Source: Mycolicibacterium mageritense (GTDB lineage: Bacteria; Actinomycetota; Actinomycetes; Mycobacteriales; Mycobacteriaceae). From it: a stretch of 32,000 nucleotides of DNA. The notes beneath the pieces were generated by a model. That model had not been told where the DNA came from. It saw only the letters and a list, made by a program, of their open reading frames with translations, and made no database searches. The first letter of the stretch is position 1. Every line of letters starts with the position of its first letter. The stretch covers positions 2,481,910 through 2,513,909 of the forward strand of contig NZ_AP022567.1 of the NCBI RefSeq assembly GCF_010727475.1, written 5' to 3'. Positions 4,890-26,131 of this stretch are shown piece by piece. A program made the position numbers and the translations under genes.

Positions 4890-4914
4890 TGACGGCGTGC
4901 GACGAAAAGAATTG

Positions 4915-4987
4915 TGGAGCCTAGGAGATTCGAACTCCTGACATCTGCCTTGCAAAGGCAGCGCTCTACCAACTGAGCTAAGGCCCC
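4915..4987 (-). tRNA. alaT: tRNA-Ala (anticodon TGC)
   Basis: Reverse complement GGGGCCTTAGCTCAGTTGGTAGAGCGCTGCCTTTGCAAGGCAGATGTCAGGAGTTCGAATCTCCTAGGCTCCA folds as a cloverleaf (7-bp acceptor, D arm GCTC/GAGC, anticodon stem CTGCC/GGCAG with loop TTTGCAA, T arm AGGAG/CTCCT). 73 nt, no encoded CCA. Confidence 0.97.
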
Positions 4988-9922: not shown

Positions 9923-10108
9923 CTAGTCCTCGTTCGTCAGGTTCGCCCGGGCGTACAGCAACCACGGGCAACCCTGAAAGTCTAGTTGGTCTGCGGCGCG
10001 GCGCCCTGCGGCGTGTCGTCGGGTGTCGGGGGAACGTCCCGCGTCGGGCGCGGCACCGAGCGAACCCGTAATTGTCGACGGCGTCATCGCCGCCGCCCCG
10101 GTCAGGCG

Positions 10109-11302: not shown

Positions 11303-13116
11303 GAGTCCAGATTCAGGGTTTGCAGGATGTTGCTGATCGCGGCCTTCATGTCGACGGCCTCGATCCGCATGAGGGCATCCTCGTCGAGGGATTCCAGTTC
11401 GGCGCCATGGCTTTCGCTGAGTCGGTACTCGCGCTCCTCCTCGGCCGACTCGATGACGTTTCGGATGAAACGGCCGTTGCCGGCGAGGTCGATATTGCGC
11501 CGGACCTTACCGTCGTGATCGGTCGACTCCTGGGCGCACAACCGGGTGCACACCGCGACGAGCTCGTCGTGGGCCTCCGAACTCAGCTCGGAGTCACGCG
11601 CCTTCGCGGTGATCCGGCCGATGTCACCGAGCTCGGCCGGGGTGTACGACGCGAACCGGATCCGCTTGGTGAAACGCGAGGACAGGCCTTCGTTCGAGGC
11701 CAGGAACCGGTCGATCTCGGCGTCATACCCGGCGATGATGACCACGAGCCGGTCGCGATCGTTCTCCATGCGCGCCAGCAGCGTGTCGACGGCTTCGCGG
11801 CCGAACGCGTCGCCACCGGACAGGCCGGTCTGAATCAGGGTGTAGGCCTCGTCGATGAACAGCACACCGTCCATCGCACTGTCGATCAGCGCCGACGTCT
11901 TGATCGCGGTGCTGCCCAGGTGCTGCCCCACGAAATCCTGGCGCTTGGCCTCGATCACCGCCGGTGTCTTCAAAAGCCCCAGGCCGCAATAGGTTTGAGC
12001 GACGACGCGGGCGATGGTGGTCTTGCCGGTTCCGGGCGGGCCGGTGAAGGCCAGGTGCAGGCTGCGGGCCGCGGTGGTCAGCCCCTTGTCCTCGCGCACC
12101 TTCGCCAGGCGGGCCGCCGAACGCAGCTTGGCCACCTGCAGTTTCACGTCGCTCAGGCCGACCTGCCGGTCCAGCTCGTCCTGGGCCGCCCGCAGATACT
12201 CGTTGCCTCGCTCGGTCAGGCTCTCGGCGTCGAACTCCGCCGCGCTGCGTGCGGACGCCGGATCCCACTTGTCGCTGCGGGAGTCGATGATCTCCTTGGT
12301 CGTGACGATCAGCCGGTACTTCGGATCGTTGAGTGCGGCGGAGTTCGCCTCGAAACCGGGTTCCTCGCTGTAGATCCGCTCGAAGATCTTCCTGGCTTCC
12401 GGCTCGTTGCCCATCTCGCGCAGGGTGAGGCCTTTGCAGAATTCGGCGGCGCGGCTTGCTGCGGGGATCGGCCCTTCGATCGCCTGGTCGAGCCTGCGCA
12501 GGCCCTCGCCGAACAATCCCATCTGCGCGCACGCCGAACCGACCATGAGGTGTGAGCCCGCGGAGATGTATTCGTCGGTGAACTGTGCGGACGCCGCCAA
12601 CGCCGTGAGCACGTCGGGCCACCGTTGCGTGGTGAAGTGCAGGACGCCGCGGATGTACGCGCAGATTTCGTCGGACCCCGAGTCGTCGGGCATGGTCGCC
12701 CGCAGCTTCGCGAGCTCGTCGAGGGCCATCTCGGCCTCGTCGTAATCCTTGCCCTGAATCATGCTGGCGGCGTATGCCAGGTGCACCTCGGTGAGAGAGC
12801 TCAGCGTGTAGTCCAGGTAGAGCCCCGTCTGGAACCGTCCGCCGAGAGTGCGCGGCGGCAGACCGAGCCGCCGCTGTTCACGACCCAGGTTCTTGCTCGA
12901 GCGATGAAGATGGTGGATCACCTCGGGCGTCGACTCGCCGGCCGCCGCCCGGCCCAGCCAGGCATCGCACATGTCGGGGTCGTACTCGGTGGCGCGTTTG
13001 AAAGCCAAGGCGGCGTACTGCACGTCGGGCTCGGTCTCCAAGCCGTCGATGGGTATCCCGAGGGACAGCACGCCCGCATCGAACACCCGCTGCGCGTCCC
13101 TGGTGCCACCACTCAT
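11299..13116 (-). CDS. eccA: ESX type VII secretion AAA+ ATPase EccA
   Basis: CbxX-type AAA+ half with Walker A FTGPPGTGKTT, Walker B VLFIDEAY and ARMENDRDRLVVIIAGY. TPR-like N-half (CDAWLGRAAAGE). Colinear with Mtb EccA1 from memory. Start placed at ATG 13116 (605 aa); the track ORF extends to 13197. Confidence 0.9.
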   Translation of the reverse strand: MSGGTRDAQRVFDAGVLSLGIPIDGLETEPDVQYAALAFKRATEYDPDMCDAWLGRAAAGESTPEVIHHLHRSSKNLGREQRRLGLPPRTLGGRFQTGLYLDYTLSSLTEVHLAYAASMIQGKDYDEAEMALDELAKLRATMPDDSGSDEICAYIRGVLHFTTQRWPDVLTALAASAQFTDEYISAGSHLMVGSACAQMGLFGEGLRRLDQAIEGPIPAASRAAEFCKGLTLREMGNEPEARKIFERIYSEEPGFEANSAALNDPKYRLIVTTKEIIDSRSDKWDPASARSAAEFDAESLTERGNEYLRAAQDELDRQVGLSDVKLQVAKLRSAARLAKVREDKGLTTAARSLHLAFTGPPGTGKTTIARVVAQTYCGLGLLKTPAVIEAKRQDFVGQHLGSTAIKTSALIDSAMDGVLFIDEAYTLIQTGLSGGDAFGREAVDTLLARMENDRDRLVVIIAGYDAEIDRFLASNEGLSSRFTKRIRFASYTPAELGDIGRITAKARDSELSSEAHDELVAVCTRLCAQESTDHDGKVRRNIDLAGNGRFIRNVIESAEEEREYRLSESHGAELESLDEDALMRIEAVDMKAAISNILQTLNLDS

Positions 13117-13272
13117 CCGTGGATCCCTATCTTTCGTCCGAACAACGTGGGGTTTCGCGGATTCGTCGACGCAGGCAACGCAGCCCCCAGCGGACAAATT
13201 ACTGCAGCCCGGCCTCCTGCGATTGTACTAAGTTGACACCTAGACGGCGTCCGAGTGTTTGGGGAGGTGCCG

Positions 13273-13599
13273 ATGGAGGTCCGGCCGGTGCGGTCGTCGG
13301 GTGGCGACATCCAGGTACTGACGACCGAACGGGGTCTGCCGATCCGGCTCAAACTCAGCCAGCGCGCGCTTGCGCAGGCTCCGCAGGATCTGGCGCAGGA
13401 GCTCCTGACGCTGTGCCAGCTCTCGGCCAAGCGGGCCCAGGTGGCACACCGGCGGGAATTGGCGCAGCGGGGGTTCAGCTCTGAGCTGGTTCGCAATTTC
13501 AACCTCGCGACCGAGGACGAGCTCGCGGCGGCCGAGGCCGCGTTCCGCGGCGACGACGACGAGGACGGTCCGCCCGATACGTGGATGAGGTCGGTATGA
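13273..13599 (+). CDS. Small YbaB/EbfC-EspL-like protein (core only) with acidic tail
   Basis: ATG 13273 with GGAGG 5 nt upstream. 108 aa. GGDIQVLTTERGLPIRLKLSQRALAQAPQDLAQELLTLCQLSAKRAQ resembles the YbaB/EspL core. Stop overlaps the next ATG (ATGA, 13596-13599). Confidence 0.55.
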   Translation: MEVRPVRSSGGDIQVLTTERGLPIRLKLSQRALAQAPQDLAQELLTLCQLSAKRAQVAHRRELAQRGFSSELVRNFNLATEDELAAAEAAFRGDDDEDGPPDTWMRSV

Positions 13600-13949
13600 A
13601 CGGCGGCCTGGCGGATTCGTTGATCGCGCGAATCATCAAGCAGCGCGATCTGATGCAGGCGATGGACGAGCACCTCAAGTCCATCTCCGCGCGGGTCACC
13701 AGCCGGGATCAGTCGGTCAGCGTCGAGGTCGACGGCATCGGGACTCTCAAGGGCATCTGGCTCGGCGAGAACGCGTACCGACATGGGCCGGACGGGCTGG
13801 CCCGGTTGATCATCGAGACCGGGCAGGCCGCTGCCAAGACCGCGCTGGACCGGCAGAACTACCTGATGAAGGAGTTCAACAGCCGGCTCGCGGCACTTCA
13901 GCAAACCCCGCTGACGAAGTGGGACGGAACGACGGTGACACCGTCGTGA
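13596..13949 (+). CDS. YbaB/EbfC-family, EspL-like protein
   Basis: 117 aa. N-terminal helix (LIARIIKQRDLMQAMDEHLKSISARV) followed by SVSVEVDGIGTLKGIWLGENAY...GLARLIIETGQAAAKTA. This is the same layout as YbaB and Mtb EspL (Rv3880c) from memory. Confidence 0.7.
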   Translation: MNGGLADSLIARIIKQRDLMQAMDEHLKSISARVTSRDQSVSVEVDGIGTLKGIWLGENAYRHGPDGLARLIIETGQAAAKTALDRQNYLMKEFNSRLAALQQTPLTKWDGTTVTPS

Positions 13950-14114
13950 TGGAACCGGTTATCTGTTTGCCGGCAGGTCAACCAGCGTTTGCTTGGCCTT
14001 GATGCGACTACAAGTGGGACAAAAATATGTGTTAGCTGCCCCTTGTGGCGCGGGTTATAGTTCCGAAAGGGACTAAAACCACAGCTACTTGGCAGTAACC
14101 GGGGAGGGGTAACG

Positions 14115-14405
14115 ATGTCCGACACCATGAAGGTTGTTCCTGGTGTGCTGGAGGCGTTCAACGCGGCCAACAGTGCAGCTGGTGCGACGATCTCGGCGGC
14201 GGGCTCCGCAGATGCCGCTGCCATGAGCAGCGCGGTGGCCACCGCCATCGGGCCGATCGGGTTGATCTACCTGAACGGATTCCTTCCGGCGATGTTCACC
14301 AACCTCACGCAGACCGTTGACGTCGGCCTGAACCACACCTTGATCGGTGCCGCGACCGAAGTTACGAAGGTGTCCACGGTCGCCACGGACGCTTCGTTCA
14401 CCTGA
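14115..14405 (+). CDS. Small helical T7SS-substrate-like protein (PE / EspC-EspF-like)
   Basis: ATG 14115 with GGAGG upstream. 96 aa, Ala-rich. N-terminal MKVVPGVLEAFNAANSAAG... follows the L-x-V-x-P-x-x-L pattern of PE/EspC-type proteins. Sits 3 nt upstream of a large WxG protein. Confidence 0.55.
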   Translation: MSDTMKVVPGVLEAFNAANSAAGATISAAGSADAAAMSSAVATAIGPIGLIYLNGFLPAMFTNLTQTVDVGLNHTLIGAATEVTKVSTVATDASFT

Positions 14406-14408
14406 CCC

Positions 14409-15809
14409 ATGCCGGCCACTCCAGCGCCGCCGGGCAATCCGACGCCGGTAGCCCCGTCGGTTCCGATCAGCCCAAGCCACCCCGGGAGCAGTGCACCTGC
14501 CCCGGTGTTCGATCCCACGCCGTACATCAACGCGCAGGAACAGAACCTCGCGGATTATCTGAATCAACCGGTCCAGGACATCCTCGCCAAGCTCGGGCTC
14601 CCGCCGCTGCCCAACGGTGCACCGCCGCCAGGTGAACCGCCGCCGGAGGGACAGCCGGGGCCCGCGAATCCCATGGATCCCAGCGCGATGATCCAGCCTG
14701 TGCTCGACGCACTCGGCACGTTGGGAACCGGGATCTTCGACAGCGTCGACCCGACCAAGATGTTCGAGGGCATCTCGAAGGCATTCGAGTCCGCATCCAG
14801 CTCGGTGCAAGAAGCACTCGGCTCGATGGAGGGCATGTGGTCGGGGGCTTCGGGCACCTCGGCCGCCGCCAAGACCGGCGAGACGCTGGCCAACGGTGCC
14901 CAGGTGGCATCCCAGTCCGCGGGGTTGGGTGCCAACCTGTCGACGTCGGTGGCCGATGTTCAGCAGGCCCAGATTCGGTTGTTGCAGATCATCGACGAGT
15001 ACAACGCCAAGATCGCGGCCATCGGGCCCAACATCATCTTCCCGTGGGGCCAGGCCCAGGCCGTCGAGGCGGCGACCCAAGCCATCACCATGACCACCGA
15101 GGTCATCACCGAGCTGCAGACCACGCTGGCCGCGCAGGGCGGCGAAGCCGCCGCGATCGGTGCGCCGACGGCACTGGCACAGGCGCCGACGGCCGCTTCT
15201 TCCATGATCAGCCCGATGATCCAGATGGCGACGGGCCTGGCGTCACCGCTGATGCAGGTTGCGACCGAAGGGCTGTCGACCGGCATGCAGACCATCACCG
15301 GTGCGGTGCAGAGCGGCGTGGAAACCGCGACGGGGCTTGCCTCGAGCCTCAGCGGCGCCGCGGGGAAGGGTGCCGACACCGCCGCGTCCACGGCCAGTGG
15401 CACCGGTGGCGCCGGGATGGCTCCGCTGAGCAAGGCCGGCGGAGGCGGCGGAGGAGGAGTACACGGTGGCGGAGGTGGCGGCGGCTCGTCGTCGGTGGCC
15501 CCGTCACGCATGATGACGCCGATGTCGATGCCCACCACCGAATCGACCAACGCCGTCCAGGGTGCCGTCAAACCCGCGTCCGTGTCCGGCGCGAGCATGG
15601 GCGGCGGCGGCATGGGCGGCGCCGGGATGATGGGCGCCGGCCACGGCGCGGGCAAGGCCGGAGTCGACGGCAGCGGACACAATGCCGCGGCGTTCCTGCA
15701 CACCTCCGATCAGGGCGACGAGATCGTCGGGGATCTCGGCAATGTGGCCCCGCCGGTGATCGGTGAGATCGACCCCAACGACAGTCCAGACATCGAACTG
15801 AGAATCTGA
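14409..15809 (+). CDS. Large WxG-containing T7SS-substrate-like protein (EspA/EspE/PPE-related architecture)
   Basis: 466 aa. Pro-rich N-terminus, then a helical region with W-x-G (MEGMWSGASGTSAAAK). A/T/S/Q/M-rich middle, poly-Gly (GGGGGGGVHGGGGGGG), Gly/Met-rich tail MGGGGMGGAGMMGAGHGAGKAG and C-terminal VAPPVIGEID. Confidence 0.6.
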   Translation: MPATPAPPGNPTPVAPSVPISPSHPGSSAPAPVFDPTPYINAQEQNLADYLNQPVQDILAKLGLPPLPNGAPPPGEPPPEGQPGPANPMDPSAMIQPVLDALGTLGTGIFDSVDPTKMFEGISKAFESASSSVQEALGSMEGMWSGASGTSAAAKTGETLANGAQVASQSAGLGANLSTSVADVQQAQIRLLQIIDEYNAKIAAIGPNIIFPWGQAQAVEAATQAITMTTEVITELQTTLAAQGGEAAAIGAPTALAQAPTAASSMISPMIQMATGLASPLMQVATEGLSTGMQTITGAVQSGVETATGLASSLSGAAGKGADTAASTASGTGGAGMAPLSKAGGGGGGGVHGGGGGGGSSSVAPSRMMTPMSMPTTESTNAVQGAVKPASVSGASMGGGGMGGAGMMGAGHGAGKAGVDGSGHNAAAFLHTSDQGDEIVGDLGNVAPPVIGEIDPNDSPDIELRI

Positions 15810-15824
15810 GTCAGGAGTTTTGAC

Positions 15825-16121
15825 ATGGCCAACACCAACGACTTTGCGATGCAGCCCACCGAGGTCGCCGATGCGACCAAGCAGCTCGACGATCTCGCGA
15901 GCCGCGTCGAGAAGGTCATGCAGACCGAGGCGCCCAACCTGACCGTGACCGCGTCCGGCCGTGACGAGGTGTCGCAGCGGGTCGCGTCGACCCTCAATGA
16001 GGTGCATGCCGCCTTCACGCGCTCGTCCGACCAGGGCATCAACGAGGTTCGCGAGGTTGCTGCGACGCTGCGCAAGCACACCGGCGACGTCGTCGCGATC
16101 GATCAGGACTTTGCTGTCTAG
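15825..16121 (+). CDS. PE-family-like protein
   Basis: 98 aa, ATG 15825 with CAGGAG upstream. TASGRDEVSQRVASTLNEVHAAF parallels the PE core (AAADEVSALTAAQFAAHAQMY, from memory). Immediately upstream of a PPE-like gene. Confidence 0.7.
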   Translation: MANTNDFAMQPTEVADATKQLDDLASRVEKVMQTEAPNLTVTASGRDEVSQRVASTLNEVHAAFTRSSDQGINEVREVAATLRKHTGDVVAIDQDFAV

Positions 16122-16172
16122 TTAGCTGGCAATCGAATCCGCGGGTTGTTTCGACCGGAGGGGGGTTAGACC

Positions 16173-17258
16173 ATGGGTTTCACCAATGTCGCGTGGGAGT
16201 CGCGCAGCACGGAGCAGCTCGCCCGTGACCTGACCGACGGTCCGGGGCCCACGTCCGTCGGGCAGGCGGGTGCCGCATGGGTGCGCGTCGCCAATGAATT
16301 GGCAAGTGTGTCGGCCGATTTCGACAAGATCGTGGAGCGCATCAAGGCCTCGTTCGCCAGCCAGGGATCCGAAGCCGCCACCCGCAAGCTCGAAGAGTTC
16401 GGCAAGTGGCTGCAGGCCATCAGCCTGAGCGCCGCGGCCAACGGCCAACGCGCCGAGGAAGCCGCCGTCGCGAACACCGTCGCGATCATGGCCATGCCGA
16501 GTGTTTCCGAGGCCATCGAGGCCAAGGCGTCGCAGGACATGATGGCCTCGCTGGCGGCATACAACGGCGCCATCCTCACCGGTCGGTTCGCCGAGTTCGA
16601 CGAAGCCGCCACCGCTGATCAGGCCAACGCTGCCGCCGTCATGCAGCAGTACGAAGAAGCGTGCAACGCCCTGGCCCAGCCATGGGACCAGCCGCTGCCG
16701 CCCGATGTCGCCAAGGGCGACGCGCTGAAGGCCGAGCAGGACGCCAAGGCCGGCGAAGGCTCGGGTGGCGGCGCAGGCGGCGGCGGGGCCGGGGGCGCCG
16801 GTGTGGCGCCTGCCCCGTTAGCTCCGTTCCGGGCCAACACCACCGCTTCGACCGGCGAGGCCAAGCCATTGCAGAAAGTCGCGGCCACGGGCGCTGGTGG
16901 TGGCAGCGGCATGGGCGGCGGCTATGGCCCGATGGCCGGTGCCCACGGCCGCGGCGACAACAACCGGGAGCACGAATCCTCGCTTCCCGCAGCCACATTG
17001 GCCGGTGGCGGCGAACCCGGTGCGGGCTTGTCGGACACCGGAGGCTCGTGGCTGCCCGCAGCGCAACAGAGCGATGCGCCGTTCACCGTGTCCAACGTCA
17101 GCTGGGGCCCCAACACGTCGGTGTTCGATGAGTTGGTGGTACCGGAGGGGCCTGAGGCTCCCGGGTTCGCCGACGAGCCGGAGCGCACTCTCGAGCAGGT
17201 GTCAGATCGCTGGGTGGCACCGCCTGTGATCGGCGTGGACAAGGGGCTGTCGATATGA
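16173..17258 (+). CDS. PPE-family-like protein (divergent, no literal PPE motif)
   Basis: 361 aa, ATG 16173 with GGAGGGGG upstream. The N-terminal ~170 aa are colinear with the PPE domain (GPGPTSVGQAGAAWVRVANELAS...; ...AAVANTVAIMAMPSVSEAIEAKA...AAVMQQYEEA). Gly-rich C-terminal half. Stop overlaps the espG ATG. Confidence 0.75.
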   Translation: MGFTNVAWESRSTEQLARDLTDGPGPTSVGQAGAAWVRVANELASVSADFDKIVERIKASFASQGSEAATRKLEEFGKWLQAISLSAAANGQRAEEAAVANTVAIMAMPSVSEAIEAKASQDMMASLAAYNGAILTGRFAEFDEAATADQANAAAVMQQYEEACNALAQPWDQPLPPDVAKGDALKAEQDAKAGEGSGGGAGGGGAGGAGVAPAPLAPFRANTTASTGEAKPLQKVAATGAGGGSGMGGGYGPMAGAHGRGDNNREHESSLPAATLAGGGEPGAGLSDTGGSWLPAAQQSDAPFTVSNVSWGPNTSVFDELVVPEGPEAPGFADEPERTLEQVSDRWVAPPVIGVDKGLSI

Positions 17259-18067
17259 CGGCGTCTCTGCAGCCCCAGTTCGTGCTCACCGACGATGAGT
17301 TGCAGGTGGCAGCCGCTCGCGTCGGGGTGCAGAGCTTCCCGACGGTGCTCGCGGTACGGCCACGGCATGCCACCCTCGACAAGCTTCACGCGGCATTCGA
17401 CAACGCGACCCGGGCTCTGACTTCGCGCGAGGTGATCATCGACGGGGTCGTGGAGCCCGACCTCGTGCCGATCCTGCAGGCGCTGCAACGGCCCGACCGT
17501 GAACTGGCGCTGCGATTGGTGACGCCGGAAGGCACGGCGCGCATCTGCGCGGTGCGCCGCGGCGGGCTGGGCGTCCTCGCCCGGCGTATCGGTCACGAGA
17601 TCACACTGCGCGTCATCGGTCACGGCACCGAATTACGCGACGTGGTGTCCGCGTTGTTGGCCGAGCTGCCACGTGCCGCCGCCGCGGACGTGACCCCGGT
17701 CGGCGCGCCGCTCGATGTGGTGGCCGAAAAGCTCTCCGGCACACACGATCCCGCCGTGCTGGCCGACCGCATCCGGGCGCTGGGAACCGAGCCTCGGGCC
17801 GCGATGCTGCTCGGCTCGGCGCTGGCGTCGCGTCAGGCATTCGGCGAGATCGTCTACTACGCGCTCAACACCGAAGAAGACCGGATCGTCCGCAGCCCGG
17901 CCGCCGTCGGCATCTTCTACACGAAGCGCGGTCGAATTGTGGGCGCGCCCAGCGCATCTCCCGCCGGGCAACTGTGGACCACACTGAAAGCCGGCTCCGA
18001 TCACGCCATCACGCAGGCGATCGCGCAGCTGGTAGAGCTTTCCGACGAGGGATGGGGGGTTCCTTAG
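17255..18067 (+). CDS. espG: ESX secretion-associated chaperone EspG
   Basis: 270 aa. ATGA overlap with the PPE-like gene. Typical EspG layout (FVLTDDELQVAAARVGVQSFPTVLAVRP...; ...RELALRLVTPEGTARICAVRRGGLGVLARR...; C-terminal ...VGIFYTKRGRIVGAP...WTTLKAGS...). Position after PE/PPE as in ESX loci. Confidence 0.85.
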   Translation: MTASLQPQFVLTDDELQVAAARVGVQSFPTVLAVRPRHATLDKLHAAFDNATRALTSREVIIDGVVEPDLVPILQALQRPDRELALRLVTPEGTARICAVRRGGLGVLARRIGHEITLRVIGHGTELRDVVSALLAELPRAAAADVTPVGAPLDVVAEKLSGTHDPAVLADRIRALGTEPRAAMLLGSALASRQAFGEIVYYALNTEEDRIVRSPAAVGIFYTKRGRIVGAPSASPAGQLWTTLKAGSDHAITQAIAQLVELSDEGWGVP

Positions 18068-18142
18068 GGGGAATGGCACTTGGCCCAAAGGCAGAAATCA
18101 TGAGCAACAACAGATCACGACCAGAAAGTGAGAAGTAGCGAA

Positions 18143-18412
18143 ATGACAGTTTCCCTCACACCGGCCGAGGCCGAGGCGAAGATCGATCAGATCAACTCCG
18201 CCCGCGACCAGGCCGTGCAGAAGCTCAACCAGATCGAGGACGCACAGCAGCAGATGCTCTCGGCGTCCTGGCAGGGCACGTCCGCGGGCAACTACGGGCG
18301 CGTCTCGCAGGCGCAGCGCGAGGAGTTCGACCAGCTGATCTCCACGCTGAACAACATCGTCGACAAGGGCTCCGAGCACATCCGCGCGGTGGCCAACCTG
18401 GACCAGGGCTAA
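18143..18412 (+). CDS. WXG100 protein, EsxB (CFP-10)-like
   Basis: 89 aa from ATG 18143; the track start GTG 18128 is an alternative. Two-helix protein with W-x-G (SASWQGTSAG, TGG at 18269-18271). First gene of an esx pair. Confidence 0.8.
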   Translation: MTVSLTPAEAEAKIDQINSARDQAVQKLNQIEDAQQQMLSASWQGTSAGNYGRVSQAQREEFDQLISTLNNIVDKGSEHIRAVANLDQG

Positions 18413-18427
18413 GGGAGGTAGGAAACA

Positions 18428-18718
18428 ATGGCTGCAGACGGCATTCTTTACAACTTCGGCGCCAACGCCGGGCACCTCGAGGACATCACCGGAATGGCCA
18501 ACGCCATTCAGGAAGTCCGCGGCGACATCCAGAGCATCTTCCAGGCTCTGTCCACGGTGTACGAAGGTGACGGCGCCACGGCGCTGAACCAGGCGCACCA
18601 GGAAGTCAACAACATGCTCGACGAAGCGCTCAACACGGTGGTCAACACCCAGAAGCAGGCGCAGGATCAGCAGGACGCCATGCAGGCGATGGACAAGGCG
18701 AACGCAGCTGCGTTCTGA
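18428..18718 (+). CDS. WXG100-like protein, EsxA (ESAT-6)-like, with Y-x-G in place of W-x-G
   Basis: 96 aa, ATG 18428 with GGGAGG upstream. Colinear by eye with ESAT-6 (ILYNFGANAGHLEDITGMANAIQ...). The turn reads STVYEGDGATA (TAC at 18560-18562). Confidence 0.78.
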   Translation: MAADGILYNFGANAGHLEDITGMANAIQEVRGDIQSIFQALSTVYEGDGATALNQAHQEVNNMLDEALNTVVNTQKQAQDQQDAMQAMDKANAAAF

Positions 18719-18732
18719 CCGGTAGCCGTGAG

Positions 18733-18762
18733 GCCCGGGCTTGCATGACCGCAAGCCCGGGC
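18733..18762 (+). terminator. Terminator-like hairpin downstream of the esx pair
   Basis: Perfect 12-bp stem GCCCGGGCTTGC (18733-18744) / GCAAGCCCGGGC (18751-18762), loop ATGACC, followed by TT. Starts 15 nt after the esxA-like stop. Confidence 0.55.
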
Positions 18763-18804
18763 TTCGCGGCTTGAATCAGGATCTAGCTTCAGGAAGGCAG
18801 TTTC

Positions 18805-19140
18805 GTGGGTAAGGACAAACCCCAACTCGAAACACTGACAGATCAAATGAAGGGTTGGCAGGCAAAAGATGCCGACCTGAAAATCTCCGAAGCAGGCAAG
18901 ACCAAGTACACAAACGCCATCAAGGCGCTCCGCGCCGAGCTGGTATCCGCACAAACCAAGCTCGCCGAGTTGAAGCAGATCGGGGATTCCGGTGCGTACC
19001 CCTCGGCAACAGCCACCAAAGCCGGGCTCGAGCAGAATGCCAAGACCCTGGACGAAACCCTTACGGCGTACATCGCATACCTGGACGCGTACAACCAGAC
19101 CGTGATCGACGCGTGTAACCGCATGGTGCAGTCCGGGTAG
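18805..19140 (+). CDS. Small helical protein, candidate PE-like partner of the following large protein
   Basis: 111 aa, GTG 18805 with AGGAAGG 7 nt upstream. Predicted all-helical, Lys/Ala/Thr-rich (TKYTNAIKALRAELVSAQTKLAELKQ...LTAYIAYLDAYNQTVIDA). Locally lower GC than its neighbours. No family recognised. Confidence 0.5.
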   Translation: MGKDKPQLETLTDQMKGWQAKDADLKISEAGKTKYTNAIKALRAELVSAQTKLAELKQIGDSGAYPSATATKAGLEQNAKTLDETLTAYIAYLDAYNQTVIDACNRMVQSG

Positions 19141-19179
19141 TTTTGAAAATCGCCACAGTTGTGTCAGAACGGAGCAGTC

Positions 19180-20610
19180 ATGTGCTTTGACGACATCGGA
19201 GACGCCATCGAGTCCGGCGCCGAATGGCTGGACAACTGGGGCGAGGAGAATCTGGGTCTGCCCGGGATGTTCACGGACTGGACCACGTACGACGGCGAGT
19301 ACAAGGACGGCAGCGGCAAGGTCGACCTCAGCGAAGTACCCGGCGGCTACCCGGTGGACGCCCTCAATGTCGCGCCCGGCTCATACACCACGGTCGCATT
19401 CACCGATGTGTACGACAACATGAAGAACGCCGGCGAGAACGTCACGAACGGGCACGCTGCGATATGGGAACAGATCTCGAACACCATGTCGCAAGCCGTC
19501 ATGACGTACAAGACCTTCCTGGAAGGCATCCGGGACTCCGACGATAACTGGGTAGGTAAGGCGGCGGATTCCGCCAACCAGAACATCACCACGTCGTTCG
19601 CTCAATTGGATGGCGCATCCAAATCGTCCACCGCGATGGTCCATCTGGCGCCAGCCTTCGCCACGACCATCGGCAATGTGGTCAAGGAAGTCGTCCACCG
19701 CAAGAGTGACTACGACGACGACATGAGTTCCTGGCCCGATCACCGGGACCAGATCAAGCGGGAGTACGACACGCTCGCGCAGTCCGTCATGTCGGACTAC
19801 GCCTCGAACATCGGCCAGATCGCGACGAAGAATCCAGACTTGACGGGTGGCAAGGAGAATCCCGAGAAGCCGGGACCGGCCGCCCCCACCAACACTCCGA
19901 CGAACTACGGTGGGCCGTCCAACAGCGGTGGCGGATCACCCAGTAAGGGTTCGGGCGCGGGCAAGCCGGACCTCTCCGGACTCAAGAAGACCACGGCCAA
20001 ACCGAATTTCGATCCCACGAAGCTGCAGCAGCAGACCACGCCGCAAAAGACCACGCCGCAGACGAGCACACCCAGCTTGCCGACCCAAGGGTTGACCGAT
20101 GCGGCCAAGGCCGCACAGGATGCTGCCAGTCAGGGGCTCGACGCGGCGAAACAAGCCATGGATCAGGCGCTCGGCAACAATCAGAATCCGTCTGGTCTGC
20201 CTGAAGGCGTTCTTGGGCTCGGCCCGAAGGGGCTGAGCGGTGCGGGCAAGGGCACCGGAGGTGGCGGCGGCCGTGCAGGCGGTGGCAGCGGCAGCGGTTC
20301 GGGGGCACGCACGTCGCCGCTGGCCCGCAACGCCGGTACCGCAACGGCGGCTACCACGAAAAGCACCGGCGCGACGACCACGGCCGCGCGATCCGGTATC
20401 AGTGCCGGTTCGGGTGCACCGGGCGCAGGGGCACCGGCTGCCGGGCATCGCGGCAACGGGGCCGACGGTTCGGTTCACAAGGCGAACAAGGCGTTGCGCC
20501 GCAAGAAGAACGGCGAGAACGTGATGGGCGACGCCGAGGCAGTGGTGGCGGTTGTCGGCGATGACACACAAGAACCGCGGATGGTTGTTCCGGCAGCTGC
20601 TGAGAAGTGA
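19180..20610 (+). CDS. Large WxG-containing PPE/EspB-like T7SS-substrate-like protein with disordered C-terminal half
   Basis: 476 aa from ATG 19180 (GGAG 5 nt upstream). The helical domain HAAIWEQISNTMSQAVMTYKTFLEGIRDSDDNWVGKAADSANQN... contains W-x-G at aa 124-126. This is followed by a P/T/Q-rich tract and a Gly-rich tract (GKGTGGGGGRAGGGSGSGSG) and a basic tail. The overall layout resembles EspB. Confidence 0.55.
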   Translation: MCFDDIGDAIESGAEWLDNWGEENLGLPGMFTDWTTYDGEYKDGSGKVDLSEVPGGYPVDALNVAPGSYTTVAFTDVYDNMKNAGENVTNGHAAIWEQISNTMSQAVMTYKTFLEGIRDSDDNWVGKAADSANQNITTSFAQLDGASKSSTAMVHLAPAFATTIGNVVKEVVHRKSDYDDDMSSWPDHRDQIKREYDTLAQSVMSDYASNIGQIATKNPDLTGGKENPEKPGPAAPTNTPTNYGGPSNSGGGSPSKGSGAGKPDLSGLKKTTAKPNFDPTKLQQQTTPQKTTPQTSTPSLPTQGLTDAAKAAQDAASQGLDAAKQAMDQALGNNQNPSGLPEGVLGLGPKGLSGAGKGTGGGGGRAGGGSGSGSGARTSPLARNAGTATAATTKSTGATTTAARSGISAGSGAPGAGAPAAGHRGNGADGSVHKANKALRRKKNGENVMGDAEAVVAVVGDDTQEPRMVVPAAAEK

Positions 20611-21605
20611 CGTTTCTGTCGTCGGCGGCCCTGCTCTTGCCACCTGCCACGCCCCTTACGGATCCAACCCTGGATATCAGCGGTAGATGGCGCGGAGTGT
20701 CCGCATCCCCCGGCCGCTCCCCGGTGGACATGGCGGTACAAGCCGGGCGGGCGGCAATCTCCGCCTCCGCGGTGTCGTCCACCGACGTCCGGTGGACCCT
20801 GCATGCGGGTTCGGGATATCAAGGCCCGATGGGTTGGCCCATCCACCACGGGATCCAACACGGCATCGTCGGCAACGTAGGCAATGCGCTCGAGGTCAAG
20901 CAATACTGTGCCGCGGGCCTCACCACGTGGATCATGGCGTCCAGCATGCTCTCTGGCGATGACGGCGCAGTCGTGTGCACAGGTGCCGACAACTGGTCGT
21001 GGGGCGACCGTTACGCGACCTCCCGCTCCGCGGGCGGGGAGCCGTTTTCAGATGTGGCGCACGCAGTCGTGCTCACCGGCGGCGACGGGTTCGCGGATAT
21101 CCTCGGATACGGGACCGCAAGCTGTCCCGGTCAGGCCCGAGTGTGGCAGACCCGAGAGAGTTTCTGGGAGAACGCGTCACTCGACGATTACCGCGCTGCC
21201 TATGAGCGTGCCGTTGCTGCGCACCGCCCAGAGGACGCCCGTGATTCCCTGCGGATGCTGGTTCGAGCGGTGAGGTCGGCACTTTCCGCGGCGGCGTTGA
21301 GTCCGCAGTACATCACTCATTTCATTCCGCATGGAACAGGCAGTGGCGAACCGTACCGAACCTTGGCCGACAAGATCGGGCTGCCGTGGTCGGAGGCCCT
21401 GTACGACTACCAGGTCGCCCAGGGATACCTCGCCGTCAGCACTCAGGTCGCCGGGCTGATTCATTGTGCCGAAACGGGTTTGAAGGCGGATTCCATCGTG
21501 CTTCTGGTGGCCGCGGAGTACCAGCTGAGCGCCACGGCCGTGGTCCTCAGAATCCTGCGGACCCCGCAAGTATCAGGAGACGGCGACGTTAGGGTGATGG
21601 CGTGA
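20607..21605 (+). CDS. KAS III (FabH)-like thiolase-fold protein with non-canonical catalytic residues
   Basis: 332 aa. GTG start overlaps the upstream stop (GTGA, 20607-20610). Colinear by eye with FabH: NALEVKQYCAAGLT (Cys101, TGT 20907-20909) vs AACAGF; HFIPHGTGSG (His242) vs VPHQAN; QGYLAVST (Tyr274) vs HGNTSAAS; C-terminal LLVAAEYQLSATAVVLR vs LLEAFGGGFTWGSALVR. Confidence 0.65.
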   Translation: MTFLSSAALLLPPATPLTDPTLDISGRWRGVSASPGRSPVDMAVQAGRAAISASAVSSTDVRWTLHAGSGYQGPMGWPIHHGIQHGIVGNVGNALEVKQYCAAGLTTWIMASSMLSGDDGAVVCTGADNWSWGDRYATSRSAGGEPFSDVAHAVVLTGGDGFADILGYGTASCPGQARVWQTRESFWENASLDDYRAAYERAVAAHRPEDARDSLRMLVRAVRSALSAAALSPQYITHFIPHGTGSGEPYRTLADKIGLPWSEALYDYQVAQGYLAVSTQVAGLIHCAETGLKADSIVLLVAAEYQLSATAVVLRILRTPQVSGDGDVRVMA

Positions 21606-22372
21606 GCAGGATCCCGATGAATCACGTCGGCTCGATCGACGTGGTCGATCTCACCGTCGTGAGCCGCGATCATGGTCGGGATTTCATCCCGTTCCCATTC
21701 ATGCAGACGCGTGCGTCCACAGTCGATCCCGAGGCTTTCGAGATGCACGCCCGCAAGGTGATCGAGAGGTTCTACAACGGTGACCTGAGTGTTCTCCAGA
21801 ACTGGGCAGGCACCTACGTGCGGGCGGACATCCGCGTCGAAGCCCACGTCCAGTTCATCCCAGCGGACAAGACCAGCGTTCGTGTCGTCGCCCACCGAAT
21901 GGGTGAGAAAGGCTACTTCGCGAGGCAGACAGACGCTGACGTGATCGAGATCTTCTCGTTGTCGCCTTACGATCTCGGTGAAGCAGTTGCGGAATCGATG
22001 GGCACGGTCACTCCCGGCAACCGCCCCGCGATCGTTGTCCCCGAGTACCAGGCACCCCCGTCGCCCGTCGAGGAAAGCGATGGGATTTCCGTCCGATCTC
22101 ATCGCGACTCCGACGAGATCGCCAAGATCGCTCGTGGCGAGATCAGTGCACTGGCGACTGTGCAAAGCCATTGGCGGCCCACCCGCAGGTGGGGAGTCGA
22201 CCGCGGGAAGAATGCGGTCGTGTGGGTGCGGGTACAAGATGACGGCGATTACCTGTATGCACCGGATTACACTGTGGCACAACCGATGTCAAAACCGCAG
22301 CTGGCTGCTCGGATCAACCGGCTGATTGCCGATGACGTCGCCGTGCTGCGCAGGTTCCGCGACGGCGCATAA
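21602..22372 (+). CDS. EspG-like protein (second copy, divergent)
   Basis: 256 aa. GTGA overlap with the upstream gene; alternative ATG at 21617. Same block order as the EspG at 17255 (DFIPFPFMQTRAS..., ...ADIRVEAHVQFIPADKTSVRVVAHRMGEKGYFARQ...EIFSLSPYDLGEAVAESMG, C-terminal ...VVWVRVQDDGDYLYAPDYTVAQPMSKPQLAARINRLI). Assignment made by eye only. Confidence 0.5.
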   Translation: MSRIPMNHVGSIDVVDLTVVSRDHGRDFIPFPFMQTRASTVDPEAFEMHARKVIERFYNGDLSVLQNWAGTYVRADIRVEAHVQFIPADKTSVRVVAHRMGEKGYFARQTDADVIEIFSLSPYDLGEAVAESMGTVTPGNRPAIVVPEYQAPPSPVEESDGISVRSHRDSDEIAKIARGEISALATVQSHWRPTRRWGVDRGKNAVVWVRVQDDGDYLYAPDYTVAQPMSKPQLAARINRLIADDVAVLRRFRDGA

Positions 22373-22802: not shown

Positions 22803-23048
22803 CACCTGGTTCTCCACCGGAGTCAAATCGTAGTTCTCGTCCAGATAGCGTGTTGACCGTCTCTCGGGATGACGACCACGAGGTACTCATCCGTCATTGA
22901 GCTTGCCGATGTGACCGTTGGCGTGGTCGCCAGGTTGATCTTGGTCGTGTGCACCATCAGTGTGACGAGGAACTGATGGGTCGCGCGGCACCCCGCTGAA
23001 GTCTTGGTGGGCTCGCAGGGTGCCGCGCTGTAGTGCACGGAGGCACCG

Positions 23049-23695
23049 ATGGTGACGGTAGAGGCTGATCTGGTCTGCGTCGAGTCCCGGCTGGCGGCCG
23101 GCCAGATCCGCTGCCCGGCGTGCCCGCAGGGCGTGCTGGCTGGATGGGGATTCGCCCGCACTCGCCGCGTGGTGGGCCTGGGTCTGGCCGGTGCGGTTCG
23201 GCCACGGCGGGCGCGATGCCGATCGTGTCTGGTGACCCATGTGTTGTTGCCGGTCACGGTGCTGCTGCGCAGAGCGTATGCAGCCGAACAGATTTGGATG
23301 GCATTGGCTGCTCGCGCACAGGGGGTGGGGCACCGCCGGATCGCCGCTGGACTCAACGTTCCGGCGACCACGGTGCGGGCTGGCTGCGCCGGGCCAGCGG
23401 CCGACTGGAGGCGATCCGGGCGCGGTTCATTCAGATGGCGGTGCTCATCGGGATCGACGTGACGATCCCCGACGAACAGAGCTATCCCTGGGGTGACGTG
23501 GTGGCCGCGGTCGATGCCGCGGCGGCGGCGATCGGGCAGCGGTTCGGGCCGGCCGGGTTGGTGGGCGCGGTGACGCCGGCGCAGGTGATGGTCGCGGTCA
23601 GCGGCGGCCGACTGCTGGCATCGGACTGGCCGGTGGCGTTACCGGCGCCGTTCACAACACCAGTTGCCCCTGATGCGCCACGTGGGAATCGGTGA
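23049..23695 (+). pseudogene. Transposon-associated Zn-ribbon + HTH protein, split by a frame break
   Basis: The frame from ATG 23049 (CPACPQG...CRSC, then ...HRRIAAGLNVPATTVR) continues sensibly only in the frame of ORF 23120-23695 (GWLRRASGRLEAIRARFIQMAVLIG...). The switch is at the G3 run 23377-23379, where one more G would give ...TTVRGWLRR.... Confidence 0.6.
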
Positions 23696-23761
23696 TCCTC
23701 GCGAAGGCACCTGCCCGACAAACAGTTTCGGGCCGGGCCATTGACTGTGTGAGGAGAGACG

Positions 23762-25213
23762 GTGTCGTTGGAAGAGCACAAGCGTCGGGAGCGGGCCCAG
23801 GCGATCGGCTTGTTCCGCTATCAGCTGATCTGCCCCGCCCTGGAGGCGGGGTTGTCGACCAAACAGCGGGGCCGGCTGGTCCGCGAGATCGCGCAGCGCA
23901 CCCATGTGGACCCGTTCGGCACCCGGGTGCAGATCGCACGACCGACCCTGGACCGCTGGATCCGCCGCTACCGGGCCGGCGGGTTCGAAGCGCTGGTGCC
24001 CGAACCGCGGCGACTGGCCACCCGCACCGACGTCCAGGTGCTGGAGTTGGCCGCGTCGTTGAAGCGGGAGAACCCCTCGCGCACCGCGGCGCAGGTGGCC
24101 CGTATCCTGCGCACCGCCACTGGCTGGGCGCCCTCGGAATCCACGTTGTTGCGCCATTTCCACCGCTGCGAACTGATGGGCCCAGCCGCCGGGACCAGCG
24201 GTGAGGTGTTCGGCCGGTTCGAAGCCACCGACCCCAACGAGCTGTGGGTCGGCGACGCCCTGCACGGCCCGCGGGTCGGAGACCGCAAAACCTACCTCTT
24301 CGCCTTCCTGGATGATCACAGTCGACTGGTGGTCGGGCACCGGTTCGGGTTCGCCGAGGACACCGTGCGCCTGGCCGCCGCGTTGAAACCCGCGCTGGCC
24401 GCCCGCGGCGTGCCCGCCTCGGTCTACGTCGACAACGGCTCGGCCTTTGTTGATGCGTGGCTGCTGCGGGCGTGCGCGAAACTCGGAATCCGGCTGGTGC
24501 ATTCGGCACCCGGCCGGCCGCAAGGACGCGGGAAAATCGAACGGTTCTTCCGGACGGTGCGCGAACAGTTCCTCGTCGAGGTCACCGACACCACCGTCGA
24601 GGACCTTGCCGCCGCCGGGGTCGACCATGCTGGCGCCCTGTTGGAGCTCAACCGGCTGTTCATGGCGTGGGTGGAAACCGAATACCACCGCCGGGTGCAC
24701 TCGGAGACCGGGCAATCCCCGCTGGCCCGGTGGGAGACCGGCTGGGAACGCGTCGGGCGCACCCCGGCATTACCGACGGCAGCGGATCTGACCGAGGCGT
24801 TCCTGTGGTCGGAATTCCGGGTGGTGACCAAGACCGCCACCGTCTCCCTGCACGCCAACACCTACCGGGTTGACCCCGCCCTGGCCGGCCGCCGCGTCGA
24901 GCTGGTGTTCTCCCCGTTCGACCTCGAGATGATCGAGGTCCGCCACGGCGGCCAGAGTTTCGGTGCCGCGGTGCCTCACACCATCACCCGCCACGCCCAC
25001 CCGAAAGCCCGACCCGAGACCGTCGAGACCCCGCCGGCAACGACGGGGATCGACTACCTGGCGTTGACCGCCGCCGCCCATCACGAGCAGCTACGCGACG
25101 ATGAACGTATCGGCTATCACGCCCTCTACGGTGATCATCATCTGCCCGGTCAGCTCTCGCTCACCGACATTGACAACATCGATGGCGAGTTCGAGGACGG
25201 GGTGTCGGCGTGA
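23762..25213 (+). CDS. DDE (rve-type) transposase, Mu / TniA / Tn552-p480-like
   Basis: 483 aa, GTG 23762 with GAGGAG 5 nt upstream. N-terminal HTH regions. Catalytic-core motifs LWVGDALHG, VYVDNGSAF and GRPQGRGKIERFF. C-terminal Mu-transposase-like beta domain. Confidence 0.85.
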   Translation: MSLEEHKRRERAQAIGLFRYQLICPALEAGLSTKQRGRLVREIAQRTHVDPFGTRVQIARPTLDRWIRRYRAGGFEALVPEPRRLATRTDVQVLELAASLKRENPSRTAAQVARILRTATGWAPSESTLLRHFHRCELMGPAAGTSGEVFGRFEATDPNELWVGDALHGPRVGDRKTYLFAFLDDHSRLVVGHRFGFAEDTVRLAAALKPALAARGVPASVYVDNGSAFVDAWLLRACAKLGIRLVHSAPGRPQGRGKIERFFRTVREQFLVEVTDTTVEDLAAAGVDHAGALLELNRLFMAWVETEYHRRVHSETGQSPLARWETGWERVGRTPALPTAADLTEAFLWSEFRVVTKTATVSLHANTYRVDPALAGRRVELVFSPFDLEMIEVRHGGQSFGAAVPHTITRHAHPKARPETVETPPATTGIDYLALTAAAHHEQLRDDERIGYHALYGDHHLPGQLSLTDIDNIDGEFEDGVSA

Positions 25214-26025
25214 GTATTCAACGGCTGCAATCACATTGGGGATTCACCCGGATGCCGTTCGGCCGGGATCTGGCCCCGTCGATGCTGCACCGCCACCCCG
25301 GCCACAGCGAAGCGATCGCCCGGATCGGCTGGTGTGTGGACCAATGCGCCATCGGGGTCATCACCGGCGAAGTCGGCGCCGGCAAAACCGTCGCGATCCG
25401 CGCGGCGGCCACCTCCTTGGATCCGGCGCGGCACGTCATCATCTACCTCGCCAACCCCACCATCGGAGTCCGCGGCATGCTTACCCACATCGTGGCCACC
25501 CTCGGGCACACCCCGGCGTTTCACACCGCCCGGCTGGCTCCCCAGGCCGCCGACGCCTTGGCCGCCGAGCACGCCGAACGGGGCCGCAACCCCGTCCTCG
25601 TCGTCGATGAAGCCCACCTGCTCGACAATCATCAACTCGAAGCGATCCGGCTGCTCACCAACCACGACATGGACAGTGGTTCCCCGTTCGCCGTCGTCCT
25701 GGTCGGGCAACCCACCCTGCGGCACCGACTGCGCCTGGGGGTGCTGGCCGCGTTAGATCAGCGCGTCGCCGTGCGCTACACCCTGCCCGGCATGACCGCG
25801 GCCGACACCGCCGACTACATCGGGCATCACACCAAGATCGCCGGCCGCTCCGATGCGCTGTTCGCCGATGACGCGATGACGCTGATCCACAACGCCTCCC
25901 GTGGACATCCGCGCGCGGTCAACAACCTCGCCCTACACGCGCTCACGGCCGCGTTCGCCGCCGGGCATTCCATCGTCGGGGAGAAAGCCGCCCGCATCGC
26001 CATCAGCGAAACAGCAACCGACTGA
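25210..26025 (+). CDS. AAA+ transposition ATPase (TniB / ExeA / Tn552-p271-like)
   Basis: 271 aa. GTGA overlap with the transposase gene. Walker A GEVGAGKT, Walker B VLVVDEAHLL, and ...LVGQPTLRHRL... typical of the AAA_22/TniB-type partner of rve transposases. Confidence 0.85.
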   Translation: MSIQRLQSHWGFTRMPFGRDLAPSMLHRHPGHSEAIARIGWCVDQCAIGVITGEVGAGKTVAIRAAATSLDPARHVIIYLANPTIGVRGMLTHIVATLGHTPAFHTARLAPQAADALAAEHAERGRNPVLVVDEAHLLDNHQLEAIRLLTNHDMDSGSPFAVVLVGQPTLRHRLRLGVLAALDQRVAVRYTLPGMTAADTADYIGHHTKIAGRSDALFADDAMTLIHNASRGHPRAVNNLALHALTAAFAAGHSIVGEKAARIAISETATD

Positions 26026-26035
26026 ACCTAATCCG

Positions 26036-26095
26036 CGTCACCACGGCGACGACCACGTCACCGCGACGAGGATCCCGTCACCGAGATCACCAACG
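26036..26095 (+). repeat. Three phased direct repeats (heptamer CGTCACC every 20 bp), candidate transposase-binding sites
   Basis: CGTCACC at 26036, 26056 and 26076 (exact 20-bp spacing): CGTCACCACGGCGACGACCA / CGTCACCGCGACGAGGATCC / CGTCACCGAGATCACCAACG. Begins 11 nt after the ATPase stop. Confidence 0.7.
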
Positions 26096-26124
26096 CCCCG
26101 CTCGCCACAAGCGAGCGGGGCGTT
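26092..26124. terminator. Strong hairpin between convergent genes (terminator-like)
   Basis: 14-bp perfect stem AACGCCCCGCTCGC (26092-26105) / GCGAGCGGGGCGTT (26111-26124), loop CACAA. Lies 7 nt downstream of the minus-strand stop at 26132-26134 and 66 nt after the ATPase stop. Confidence 0.55.
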
Positions 26125-26131
26125 CTCATCA

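Follow-up and report, generated by a model that had tools for sequence, protein, structure and literature searches.

A KAS III-like gene of the CerJ/DpsC/ChlB3 branch is a fixed accessory of actinobacterial type VII (ESX) secretion loci

What is a relative of β-ketoacyl-acyl carrier protein synthase III (KAS III) doing in a type VII secretion (T7SS, or ESX) locus? Such loci are usually viewed as encoding a membrane machine, helical substrates and chaperones. Here we consider a stretch of 32,000 nucleotides (nt) from Mycolicibacterium mageritense (contig NZ_AP022567.1, positions 2,481,910 to 2,513,909), which we call the window and whose own numbering and strands we use throughout. Within it, a 332-amino-acid (aa) open reading frame (ORF) with a GTG start (20607-21605 (+)), the KAS gene, lies between the gene for a 476-aa substrate-like protein (19180-20610 (+)) and the gene for a 256-aa EspG-family paralogue (21602-22372 (+)). 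An earlier inspection of the letters, the sequence-only reading, described the ORF as a FabH-like enzyme with a Cys-His-Tyr set and suggested that it acylates a secreted substrate or an envelope lipid. We found that this gene belongs by fold and profile to the CerJ/DpsC/ChlB3 branch of KAS III-like proteins, and that ESX loci of actinobacteria have taken up this branch as a fixed accessory. The GTGA overlaps reported at both gene ends are present in the sequence: the stop codon of the 476-aa gene (TGA, 20608-20610) overlaps the KAS start (GTG, 20607-20609), and the KAS stop (TGA, 21603-21605) overlaps the start of the EspG paralogue (GTG, 21602-21604).

The KAS ORF is a genuine gene under purifying selection rather than a chance ORF. 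The ratio of nonsynonymous to synonymous substitution rates (dN/dS) was 0.10-0.29 across 14 pairwise comparisons, with dS close to saturation, and at least 125 homologues were identified at 48-99% identity, including an M. mageritense protein (P0001) that is 99% identical to the ORF. The whole window is GC-rich (62-70%). Residues 1-30 are conserved in the homologues, with W28 and R29 invariant, and are confidently modelled as an N-terminal strand; the gene is therefore correctly modelled at its full length of 332 aa. Public entries for many family members (P0001, P0002, P0009-P0012 and others) are 291-302 aa long and start 30-41 codons too far downstream; they lose the conserved strand together with W28-R29 and are probably truncated annotations.

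Scanning one genome per species across 185,579 species revealed 18 loci, all from Mycobacteriaceae (Mycolicibacterium and Mycobacterium species and metagenome-assembled genomes (MAGs)). When these were searched by tblastn with the window proteins, the order of 476-aa gene, KAS gene and EspG paralogue was kept in 18 of 18. A PE-PPE-EspG-EsxBA block stood upstream of this cassette wherever the flank was available, and EccA was encoded divergently in seven loci. The 476-aa and KAS genes overlap by 4 nt in the window and in 11 other loci, the remaining junctions being no more than ~10 nt apart, and most junctions between KAS and EspG-like genes overlap too. One MAG (L003) carries EccC, EccD, MycP and a ParA-like gene immediately upstream of the cassette. 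A plasmid-borne ESX-P origin was considered and rejected, a tblastn search of 72,556 plasmids having returned only a 26% match from Streptomyces.

The L017 MAG has a second copy of the EspG paralogue as well as a gene for a 770-aa EspA-like TPR protein downstream of the cassette (the two genes occupy 12581-14893 (-) and 15436-16167 (+)). In Mycobacterium sp. pUA109 (L004), a 737-aa protein that combines a Gln-deamidase (papain-fold toxin) with a non-specific endonuclease and TNT (tuberculosis necrotizing toxin) domain (18752-20965 (-)) is encoded ~8 kb downstream of the cassette and looks like a polymorphic-toxin-type effector.

To which branch of the KAS III-like proteins does the product belong? 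Structure prediction bore out the fold that had been read from the letters: the AlphaFold2 (AF2) model, built from an alignment of 27 homologues, is KAS III-like, with the alpha-beta-alpha-beta-alpha thiolase fold (predicted local distance difference test (pLDDT), 88.4; predicted template modelling score, 0.90). Foldseek searches of the PDB with this model placed CerJ at the top (E = 6e-26; template modelling (TM) score, 0.83; 26% identity), followed by NatS, DpsC and ChlB3 (E = 1e-21 to 1e-24) and later by FabH enzymes, BioZ and PqsBC (E ~1e-15 to 1e-17), with TM scores of 0.68-0.76 between the model and FabH structures. A family profile searched against PDB sequences likewise matched CerJ (2.7e-28), NatS (2.3e-24), 9Z38 (6e-23) and DpsC and ChlB3 (~5e-17), with FabH at 1.8e-6 or weaker. 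CerJ/DpsC/ChlB3-type matches lead FabH by 7-10 orders of magnitude (Foldseek and profile). Because the two rankings agree, we assign the KAS protein to the non-condensing, KAS III-like acyltransferase branch and not to FabH proper; judged from the model and the profiles, it is a divergent CerJ/DpsC/ChlB3-branch member of the KAS III-like thiolase-fold proteins. Scores of curated models fell short of their cutoffs, with Pfam ACP_syn_III_C scoring 20.2 bits (cutoff 26.6) and the best NCBIfam FabH model 33 bits (cutoff 437).

The characterized members of the branch show what the window protein shares and what it has changed. CerJ, an O-malonyltransferase of Streptomyces tendae (PDB 3S3L), has its Cys at the same position (C116, against C101), an LxLH..QG..WP motif and a T-G-D core in common with the KAS protein, but carries Cys116-His295-Asp300 and a GGGAG loop where the latter has Tyr274 and Thr279 and E-Y-Q; it is also encoded in a polyketide gene cluster, whereas the KAS gene stands in an ESX cassette. 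DpsC (daunorubicin) and ChlB3 (chlorothricin), from the same branch, share an A-D-N-(F/W) motif, and DpsC has His266 at the FabH His position, like His242 of the window protein. Unlike it, both keep His296/297 and Asp301/302 and act on acyl-coenzyme A (acyl-CoA) or on acyl carrier protein (ACP) in polyketide synthase (PKS) pathways, whereas the window cassette has no ACP or PKS partner.

How far does the family reach? When 1.84 billion cluster representatives were searched exhaustively with the family profile, the family proper, which is confined to Mycobacteriaceae, amounted to only two full-length clusters at 50% identity (P0041 and P0121), plus fragments. A thin second tier followed (P0125 at 184 bits, then P0127, P0129 and P0132), with a broad CerJ-like crowd at ~100 bits beyond it, and a metagenome scan for second-tier relatives yielded a single weak partial match. 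Second-tier relatives retain G-H-L-x-V-S-D and a Gly-containing loop and have the WPxHH and GADN..W.DRF motifs in common with the mycobacterial family; the latter is therefore a derived offshoot in which the His-Asp pair was lost.

The nearest relatives outside the family are KAS III-like proteins from Gordonia (P0125, P0270 and P0272; profile score, 184 bits), and they too are encoded in ESX loci. In Gordonia locus L020 (GCA_000334455.1), the KAS gene stands between EccC-EccD-MycP-YbaB-like genes and EccB-EccE-WXG100x2-EspG-PPE genes; a second Gordonia genome (L021) and a metagenome contig (L023) have the same local set, the KAS gene of the contig lying among WXG100_2 and YbaB-like genes, and a degraded copy is present in a further locus (L025). 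Alongside the WPxHH and GADN..W.DRF motifs, the Gordonia loci share with the window cassette homologues of the EspG paralogue (249/258-aa genes; E = 4e-9 and 8e-8) and of the 476-aa protein (476/514 aa, with an MSGGD-type N-terminus, WxG and the C-terminal motif EHKANKFL..TRNGE..PVV). They differ in keeping the Cys-His-Asp triad and the Gly-containing loop, in having a 222-aa TPR-like gene upstream and in encoding the EspG-like protein on the opposite strand.

The recurrent T7SS linkage of homologues that the sequence-only reading had raised was thus found in all 18 genome loci, in two Gordonia genomes and in one related metagenome contig. Not every relative is so placed: P0273, at 31% identity, belongs to a typical natural-product cluster that comprises three KAS III-like genes along with those for a methyltransferase, UbiA and a SARP regulator. 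The ESX linkage is therefore clade-specific, and it arose before the His-Asp pair was lost. The Gordonia ESX loci (853-21077 in L020, and that of L021) carry EccE, EspG and PPE genes; a 2024 review gives ESX-4 as the only T7SS in non-mycobacterial Actinomycetota such as Gordonia (PMC11217815).

Is the active site of the mycobacterial protein that of an enzyme? Alignment by hhalign to Escherichia coli K-12 FabH (b1091, NC_000913.3) was statistically weak (E = 0.018) and colinear over residues 34-306, and it reproduced the pairs that had been proposed by eye: QYCAAGL with AAACAGF (C101/C112), IPHGTG with VPHQAN (H242/H244, with GTG for QAN) and QGYLAVST with HGNTSAAS (Y274/N274). In this alignment the canonical Cys-His-Asn triad is incomplete, Tyr standing where FabH has Asn. 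FabH resembles the window protein in its colinear thiolase fold and in the retained Cys and His positions; it differs in having Asn274 in place of Tyr and a GGG loop (FGGGF) where the KAS protein has A-A-E304-Y305-Q306, in that the KAS family does not conserve the His, and in the absence of fab genes around the KAS gene. The residues concerned are encoded at 20907-20909 (+) (Cys101, at the nucleophile position; TGT), 21330-21332 (+) (His242; CAT) and 21426-21428 (+) (Tyr274; TAC). Across our alignments, H242 corresponds to FabH H244 and DpsC H266, and Y274 to FabH N274 and DpsC H297, a position held by His295 in CerJ and His296 in ChlB3. The CerJ and ChlB3 sequences used here were rebuilt from HMMER output, and their residue identities fit the published numbering (PMC9573744).

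We counted conservation over 121 family members. Cys101, Cys124 and His80 were present in all of them, and Q99-x-C101 is invariant. Position 242, by comparison, was His in 89, Gln in 27 and Pro in 5, and position 274 was Tyr in 113, Phe in 6 and Asp in 2, with Thr279 in 106 and Tyr305 in 116. Because position 242 may be His, Gln or Pro, "Cys-His-Tyr" describes this one protein and is not a conserved triad; as a functional triad it lacks support, the more so as Tyr274 sits at the catalytic His of the clade. What is conserved, on these alignments, is the Cys plus two positions that usually bear putative hydrogen-bond donors. We also mapped onto the family the 14 ChlB3 pocket residues of PMC9573744 together with Asp301. 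Seven residues at pocket positions by the Cys (C101, G143, W180, M217, S244, Y274 and Y305) are >93% conserved and family-specific, and lid-helix positions are variable. Few stretches of the protein are as well conserved as its remodelled active-site loops. The site near the Cys looks both remodelled and constrained, and sequence alone cannot tell whether it is catalytic.

The two genes that flank the KAS gene bear on any proposed function. The downstream product is EspG-like, as had been proposed: it matched Pfam EspG (PF14011) at 35.7 bits against a cutoff of 27, as did 10 of 10 orthologues. The EspB/PPE-like label given to the upstream product has weaker footing, since its Pfam PPE and EspB_PPE matches exist (E = 0.002-0.006) but lie below cutoffs and recur in only 2 of 13 orthologues. 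Profile searches of PDB sequences with the 476-aa and EspG-like families gave no match. Profile-profile comparison of the 476-aa N-terminal domain with the PPE protein of the locus was not significant (hhalign, E = 0.011 over 47 columns), and a homologue search with this domain returned nothing at E <= 0.001, the query itself also going unmatched. The domain is predicted to be helical, with a nearly invariant WxG turn (W124-x-G126); a single-sequence AF2 model breaks the helix at WxG (pLDDT, 38.6; not used for fold search). A Pro/Gly/Ala-rich linker follows, and then a C-terminal motif, HKxNKALRRKKNGE..AVVPVxGDD, which is the best-conserved segment of the protein.

Translation of the 476-aa protein starts at ATG 19180 with ACGGAG ahead of it, and the M. 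heidelbergense orthologue has a GTG start with AGAAGAGGA ahead. Residue 2 is Cys in 8 and Ser in 9 of 17 orthologues, Gordonia included, and the next ~60 residues are hypervariable. This Cys/Ser may be taken as a lead for an acceptor site and not as evidence of one. Conserved YxxxD/E motifs were absent from both the 476-aa family and that of the 111-aa helical protein whose gene precedes it (18805-19140 (+)). The 111-aa gene was detected at 10 of the 15 loci covering its position, and its product aligns lengthwise with a 161/166-aa protein encoded beside the Gordonia KAS gene (11118-11618 (-) in L020 and 4484-4969 (-) in L021). A canonical YxxxD/E (AYQDTD/E) occurs in these Gordonia proteins only, the mycobacterial counterparts having a conserved Y-x-x-Y-L-D.

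What, then, might the KAS protein do? The reading we favour, tentatively and with rather less than even confidence, is that of a dedicated ESX-associated acyl-thioester enzyme, in which Cys101 carries a thioester, positions 242 and 274 activate it and the acyl group passes to an acceptor in the cassette. The protein is predicted to be a homodimer, as are the solved members of the branch. Cys101 would still take an acyl-thioester from a short acyl-CoA or acyl-ACP in the ping-pong manner of CerJ and ChlB3, and (His/Gln)242 and Tyr274, at the positions of FabH His244/Asn274 and DpsC His266/His297, would polarize the carbonyl by hydrogen bonding to the oxygen of the thioester or enolate. In DpsC, His266 and His297 form such a pair of hydrogen-bond donors (PMC9573744). 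The acyl group would then move to an acceptor within the ESX cassette, most likely the co-translated 476-aa protein while it is held by the EspG-like chaperone, with Cys/Ser2 as the leading candidate site. The fully specified version, in which the Cys101 acyl group goes to Cys/Ser2 by trans-thioesterification, or by esterification followed by an S/O-to-N shift, while the EspG paralogue holds the protein for export, is in our view a long shot. Were it true, an ESX substrate would be lipidated or acylated by a protein acyltransferase of an entirely new class. The Gordonia relatives, ESX-linked with an intact Cys-His-Asp, argue for an enzymatic ancestral role in such loci.

Acyl modification of an ESX substrate has a precedent in Emp1, a GNAT enzyme of M. 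marinum that N-terminally acetylates EsxA (PMC10653941). Unlike the KAS protein, Emp1 has an unrelated GNAT fold, is encoded outside the ESX locus and hands over its acetyl group in a direct transfer that involves no thioester.

Several observations weigh against an acyl-transferring enzyme. The catalytic residues of the branch are C116-H295-D300 in CerJ and C113-H296-D301 in ChlB3, and the CerJ variants C116A, C116S and H295N are all inactive (PMC9573744). Alignment to these proteins places Tyr274 at the catalytic His and Thr279 at its partner Asp, the pair that the branch carries in a G-H-x-G-x-x-D motif. Where the family otherwise has a Gly-rich loop to shape its oxyanion hole and pantetheine tunnel, the window protein reads A-A-E-Y-Q. 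Position 242 is Pro in 5 of the 121 members, and the pocket set is not significantly more conserved than the protein as a whole (7/15 versus 104/332 low-entropy positions, P = 0.15). No acyl donor, ACP or CoA ligase gene is conserved in the cassette across the 18 loci. To our knowledge, the acceptors of KAS III-like enzymes are small molecules and carrier proteins rather than substrate proteins. A Cys at residue 2 of the 476-aa protein also tends to go with His at position 242, and a Ser with Gln or Pro (12 of 15); this pattern is confounded by phylogeny and, because it follows clades, was not counted as evidence. The argument that a KAS III-like protein lacking Asn is an acyltransferase is, given Tyr274, Thr279 and the replaced Gly loop, too simple: the fold and profile relatives are indeed of acyltransferase type, but the missing Asn does not suffice where the His-Asp pair and the loop are gone too, and the KAS protein could be a pseudoenzyme.

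On that account, the main rival to our reading although we consider it somewhat unlikely, catalysis would have been lost and the thiolase-fold dimer would serve as a structural partner of the 476-aa protein (a co-chaperone, specificity factor or stoichiometric complex subunit) together with the EspG paralogue, while a role in packing, or in holding a ligand or peptide, would preserve Cys101 and the conserved bulky residues. In its favour are the missing His-Asp pair, which CerJ and ChlB3 require, the variability of position 242, the lack of significant extra conservation in the pocket and a cassette free of donor and carrier genes. The Gly-rich loop has also given way to a bulky E-Y-Q, W180, M217, Y274 and Y305 could fill the pocket, and translational coupling at both ends favours 1:1 complexes. 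Such a role is harder to reconcile with a Cys present in 121 of 121 members within an invariant Q99-x-C101, with remodelled active-site loops that rank among the best-conserved segments and with Gordonia relatives that hold a full Cys-His-Asp triad in similar loci. Known KAS-fold pseudosubunits, moreover, usually lose the Cys, as PqsB has.

Alternatively, the KAS protein could be catalytically active, in acyl transfer or in residual condensation, on a metabolite or envelope lipid that the ESX system requires and not on a protein, a possibility we judge unlikely. All of the characterized relatives (CerJ, ChlB3 and DpsC) act on small molecules or carrier-protein thioesters, (His/Gln)242 and Tyr274 mimic a hydrogen-bond donor pair that stabilizes an enolate, and ESX function is known to be tied to the outer lipids of mycobacteria (see, for example, 10.1101/2024.01.09.574891). 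Against this stand the absence of any conserved lipid, PKS, ACP, ligase or transporter gene, the only invariant neighbours being T7SS substrate and chaperone genes, and a 4-nt coupling to substrate-like and EspG genes that is unusual for a metabolic enzyme.

It is highly improbable that the KAS protein is itself an ESX-exported cargo or effector with the EspG paralogue as its chaperone. The next gene downstream, to which it is translationally coupled, is of the EspG family, and enzyme-domain effectors occur at other ESX-linked loci, such as the TNT/endonuclease/deamidase toxin of L004. The protein nevertheless has no helical targeting domain of the PE, PPE, WXG or LXG type, its compact thiolase fold filling all 332 aa, and EspG proteins bind PPE-type helical tips. 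An ordinary FabH or housekeeping KAS III placed here by chance can be dismissed: many homologues are labelled "3-oxoacyl-ACP synthase III" by JGI and weak NCBIfam FabH matches exist, but the FabH and Pfam scores (33 versus 437 and 20.2 versus 26.6 bits) are far below cutoffs, Asn274 and the Gly loop are absent, the family is limited to Mycobacteriaceae and T7SS synteny holds in 18 of 18 loci.

Upstream of the 111-aa gene, the forward strand encodes a PE/EspC-like protein (14115-14405), a 466-aa protein (14409-15809), a PE protein (15825-16121), a PPE protein (16173-17258), a canonical 270-aa EspG chaperone (17255-18067; Pfam E = 1.9e-44) and an EsxB-like and EsxA-like WXG100 pair (18128-18412 and 18428-18718; 26.3 and 21.0 bits, just under the Pfam WXG100 cutoff of 27.3). 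From 14115 to 22372, the forward-strand genes either overlap or are separated by gaps of <=86 nt, and the tightly coupled cassette of 111-aa, 476-aa, KAS and EspG-paralogue genes closes this operon. A divergent arm on the reverse strand contains a ParA/MinD-like ATPase (10109-11302 (-)), EccA (11299-13197 (-); Pfam EccA1_N, E = 2e-111) and a conserved 263-aa ORF (13113-13904 (-)). EccB, EccC, EccD, EccE and MycP were not found in the window, and we therefore regard this as a satellite locus for substrates and chaperones in M. mageritense.

The 466-aa (15690-15809), PPE (17180-17258) and 476-aa (20480-20610) proteins share a C-terminal motif, ..G(D/E)xxxV(A/V)(P/A)(P/V)V(I/V)G.., which may be a common recognition signal. 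Two of these three proteins end in ..ELRI and ..GLSI, and the TPR-like neighbours of KAS in Gordonia end similarly, in ..F(R/Q)(I/L).

Within the window, the ESX genes are flanked by gyrA on one side and by an IS21-like element and conserved hypothetical genes on the other. The gyrA gene (6155-9922 (-)) contains an intein bearing a LAGLIDADG domain and is followed by a DUF3566 (Rv0007-like) gene (5275-6102 (-)). Directly upstream of gyrA lies the ParA-like/EccA arm of the ESX cluster (9923-11302) and not gyrB, which was found nowhere in the window, its far end included. The IS21-like element (~22830-26130; istA 23762-25213, istB 25210-26025) separates genes for conserved 148-aa and 365-aa proteins that are adjacent in M. 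peregrinum (L005, 11717-13207), so the element has inserted recently at this site close behind the cassette.

Has such a gene been described in an ESX locus before? Full-text literature searches that paired type VII secretion with enzymes of the KAS III kind gave no relevant description. Three surveys of ESX diversity (PMC4779608, PMC4791881 and PMC11217815) make no mention of a KAS gene, and in one of them the M. mageritense ESX loci were manually annotated. Within the limits of the literature searched, the association between KAS and ESX is undescribed, in agreement with the sequence-only reading, which knew of no such locus.

The carriers are environmental or opportunistic species, including M. 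mageritense, M. peregrinum, M. sherrisii and M. heidelbergense, and not M. tuberculosis, so the immediate medical impact is limited. For the biology of type VII secretion, the fixed position of a thiolase-fold gene of fatty-acid or polyketide type, with a substrate gene on one side and an EspG-type chaperone gene on the other, points to an undescribed step: the substrate might be acylated, secretion might be coupled to a lipid, or the protein might be a chaperone of a new type. A single ESX-linked clade also provides a natural experiment, with a Cys-His-Asp triad in Gordonia and a remodelled, Cys-only site in mycobacteria, and because both versions of the site occur in that one clade, the choice between enzyme and pseudoenzyme is directly testable.

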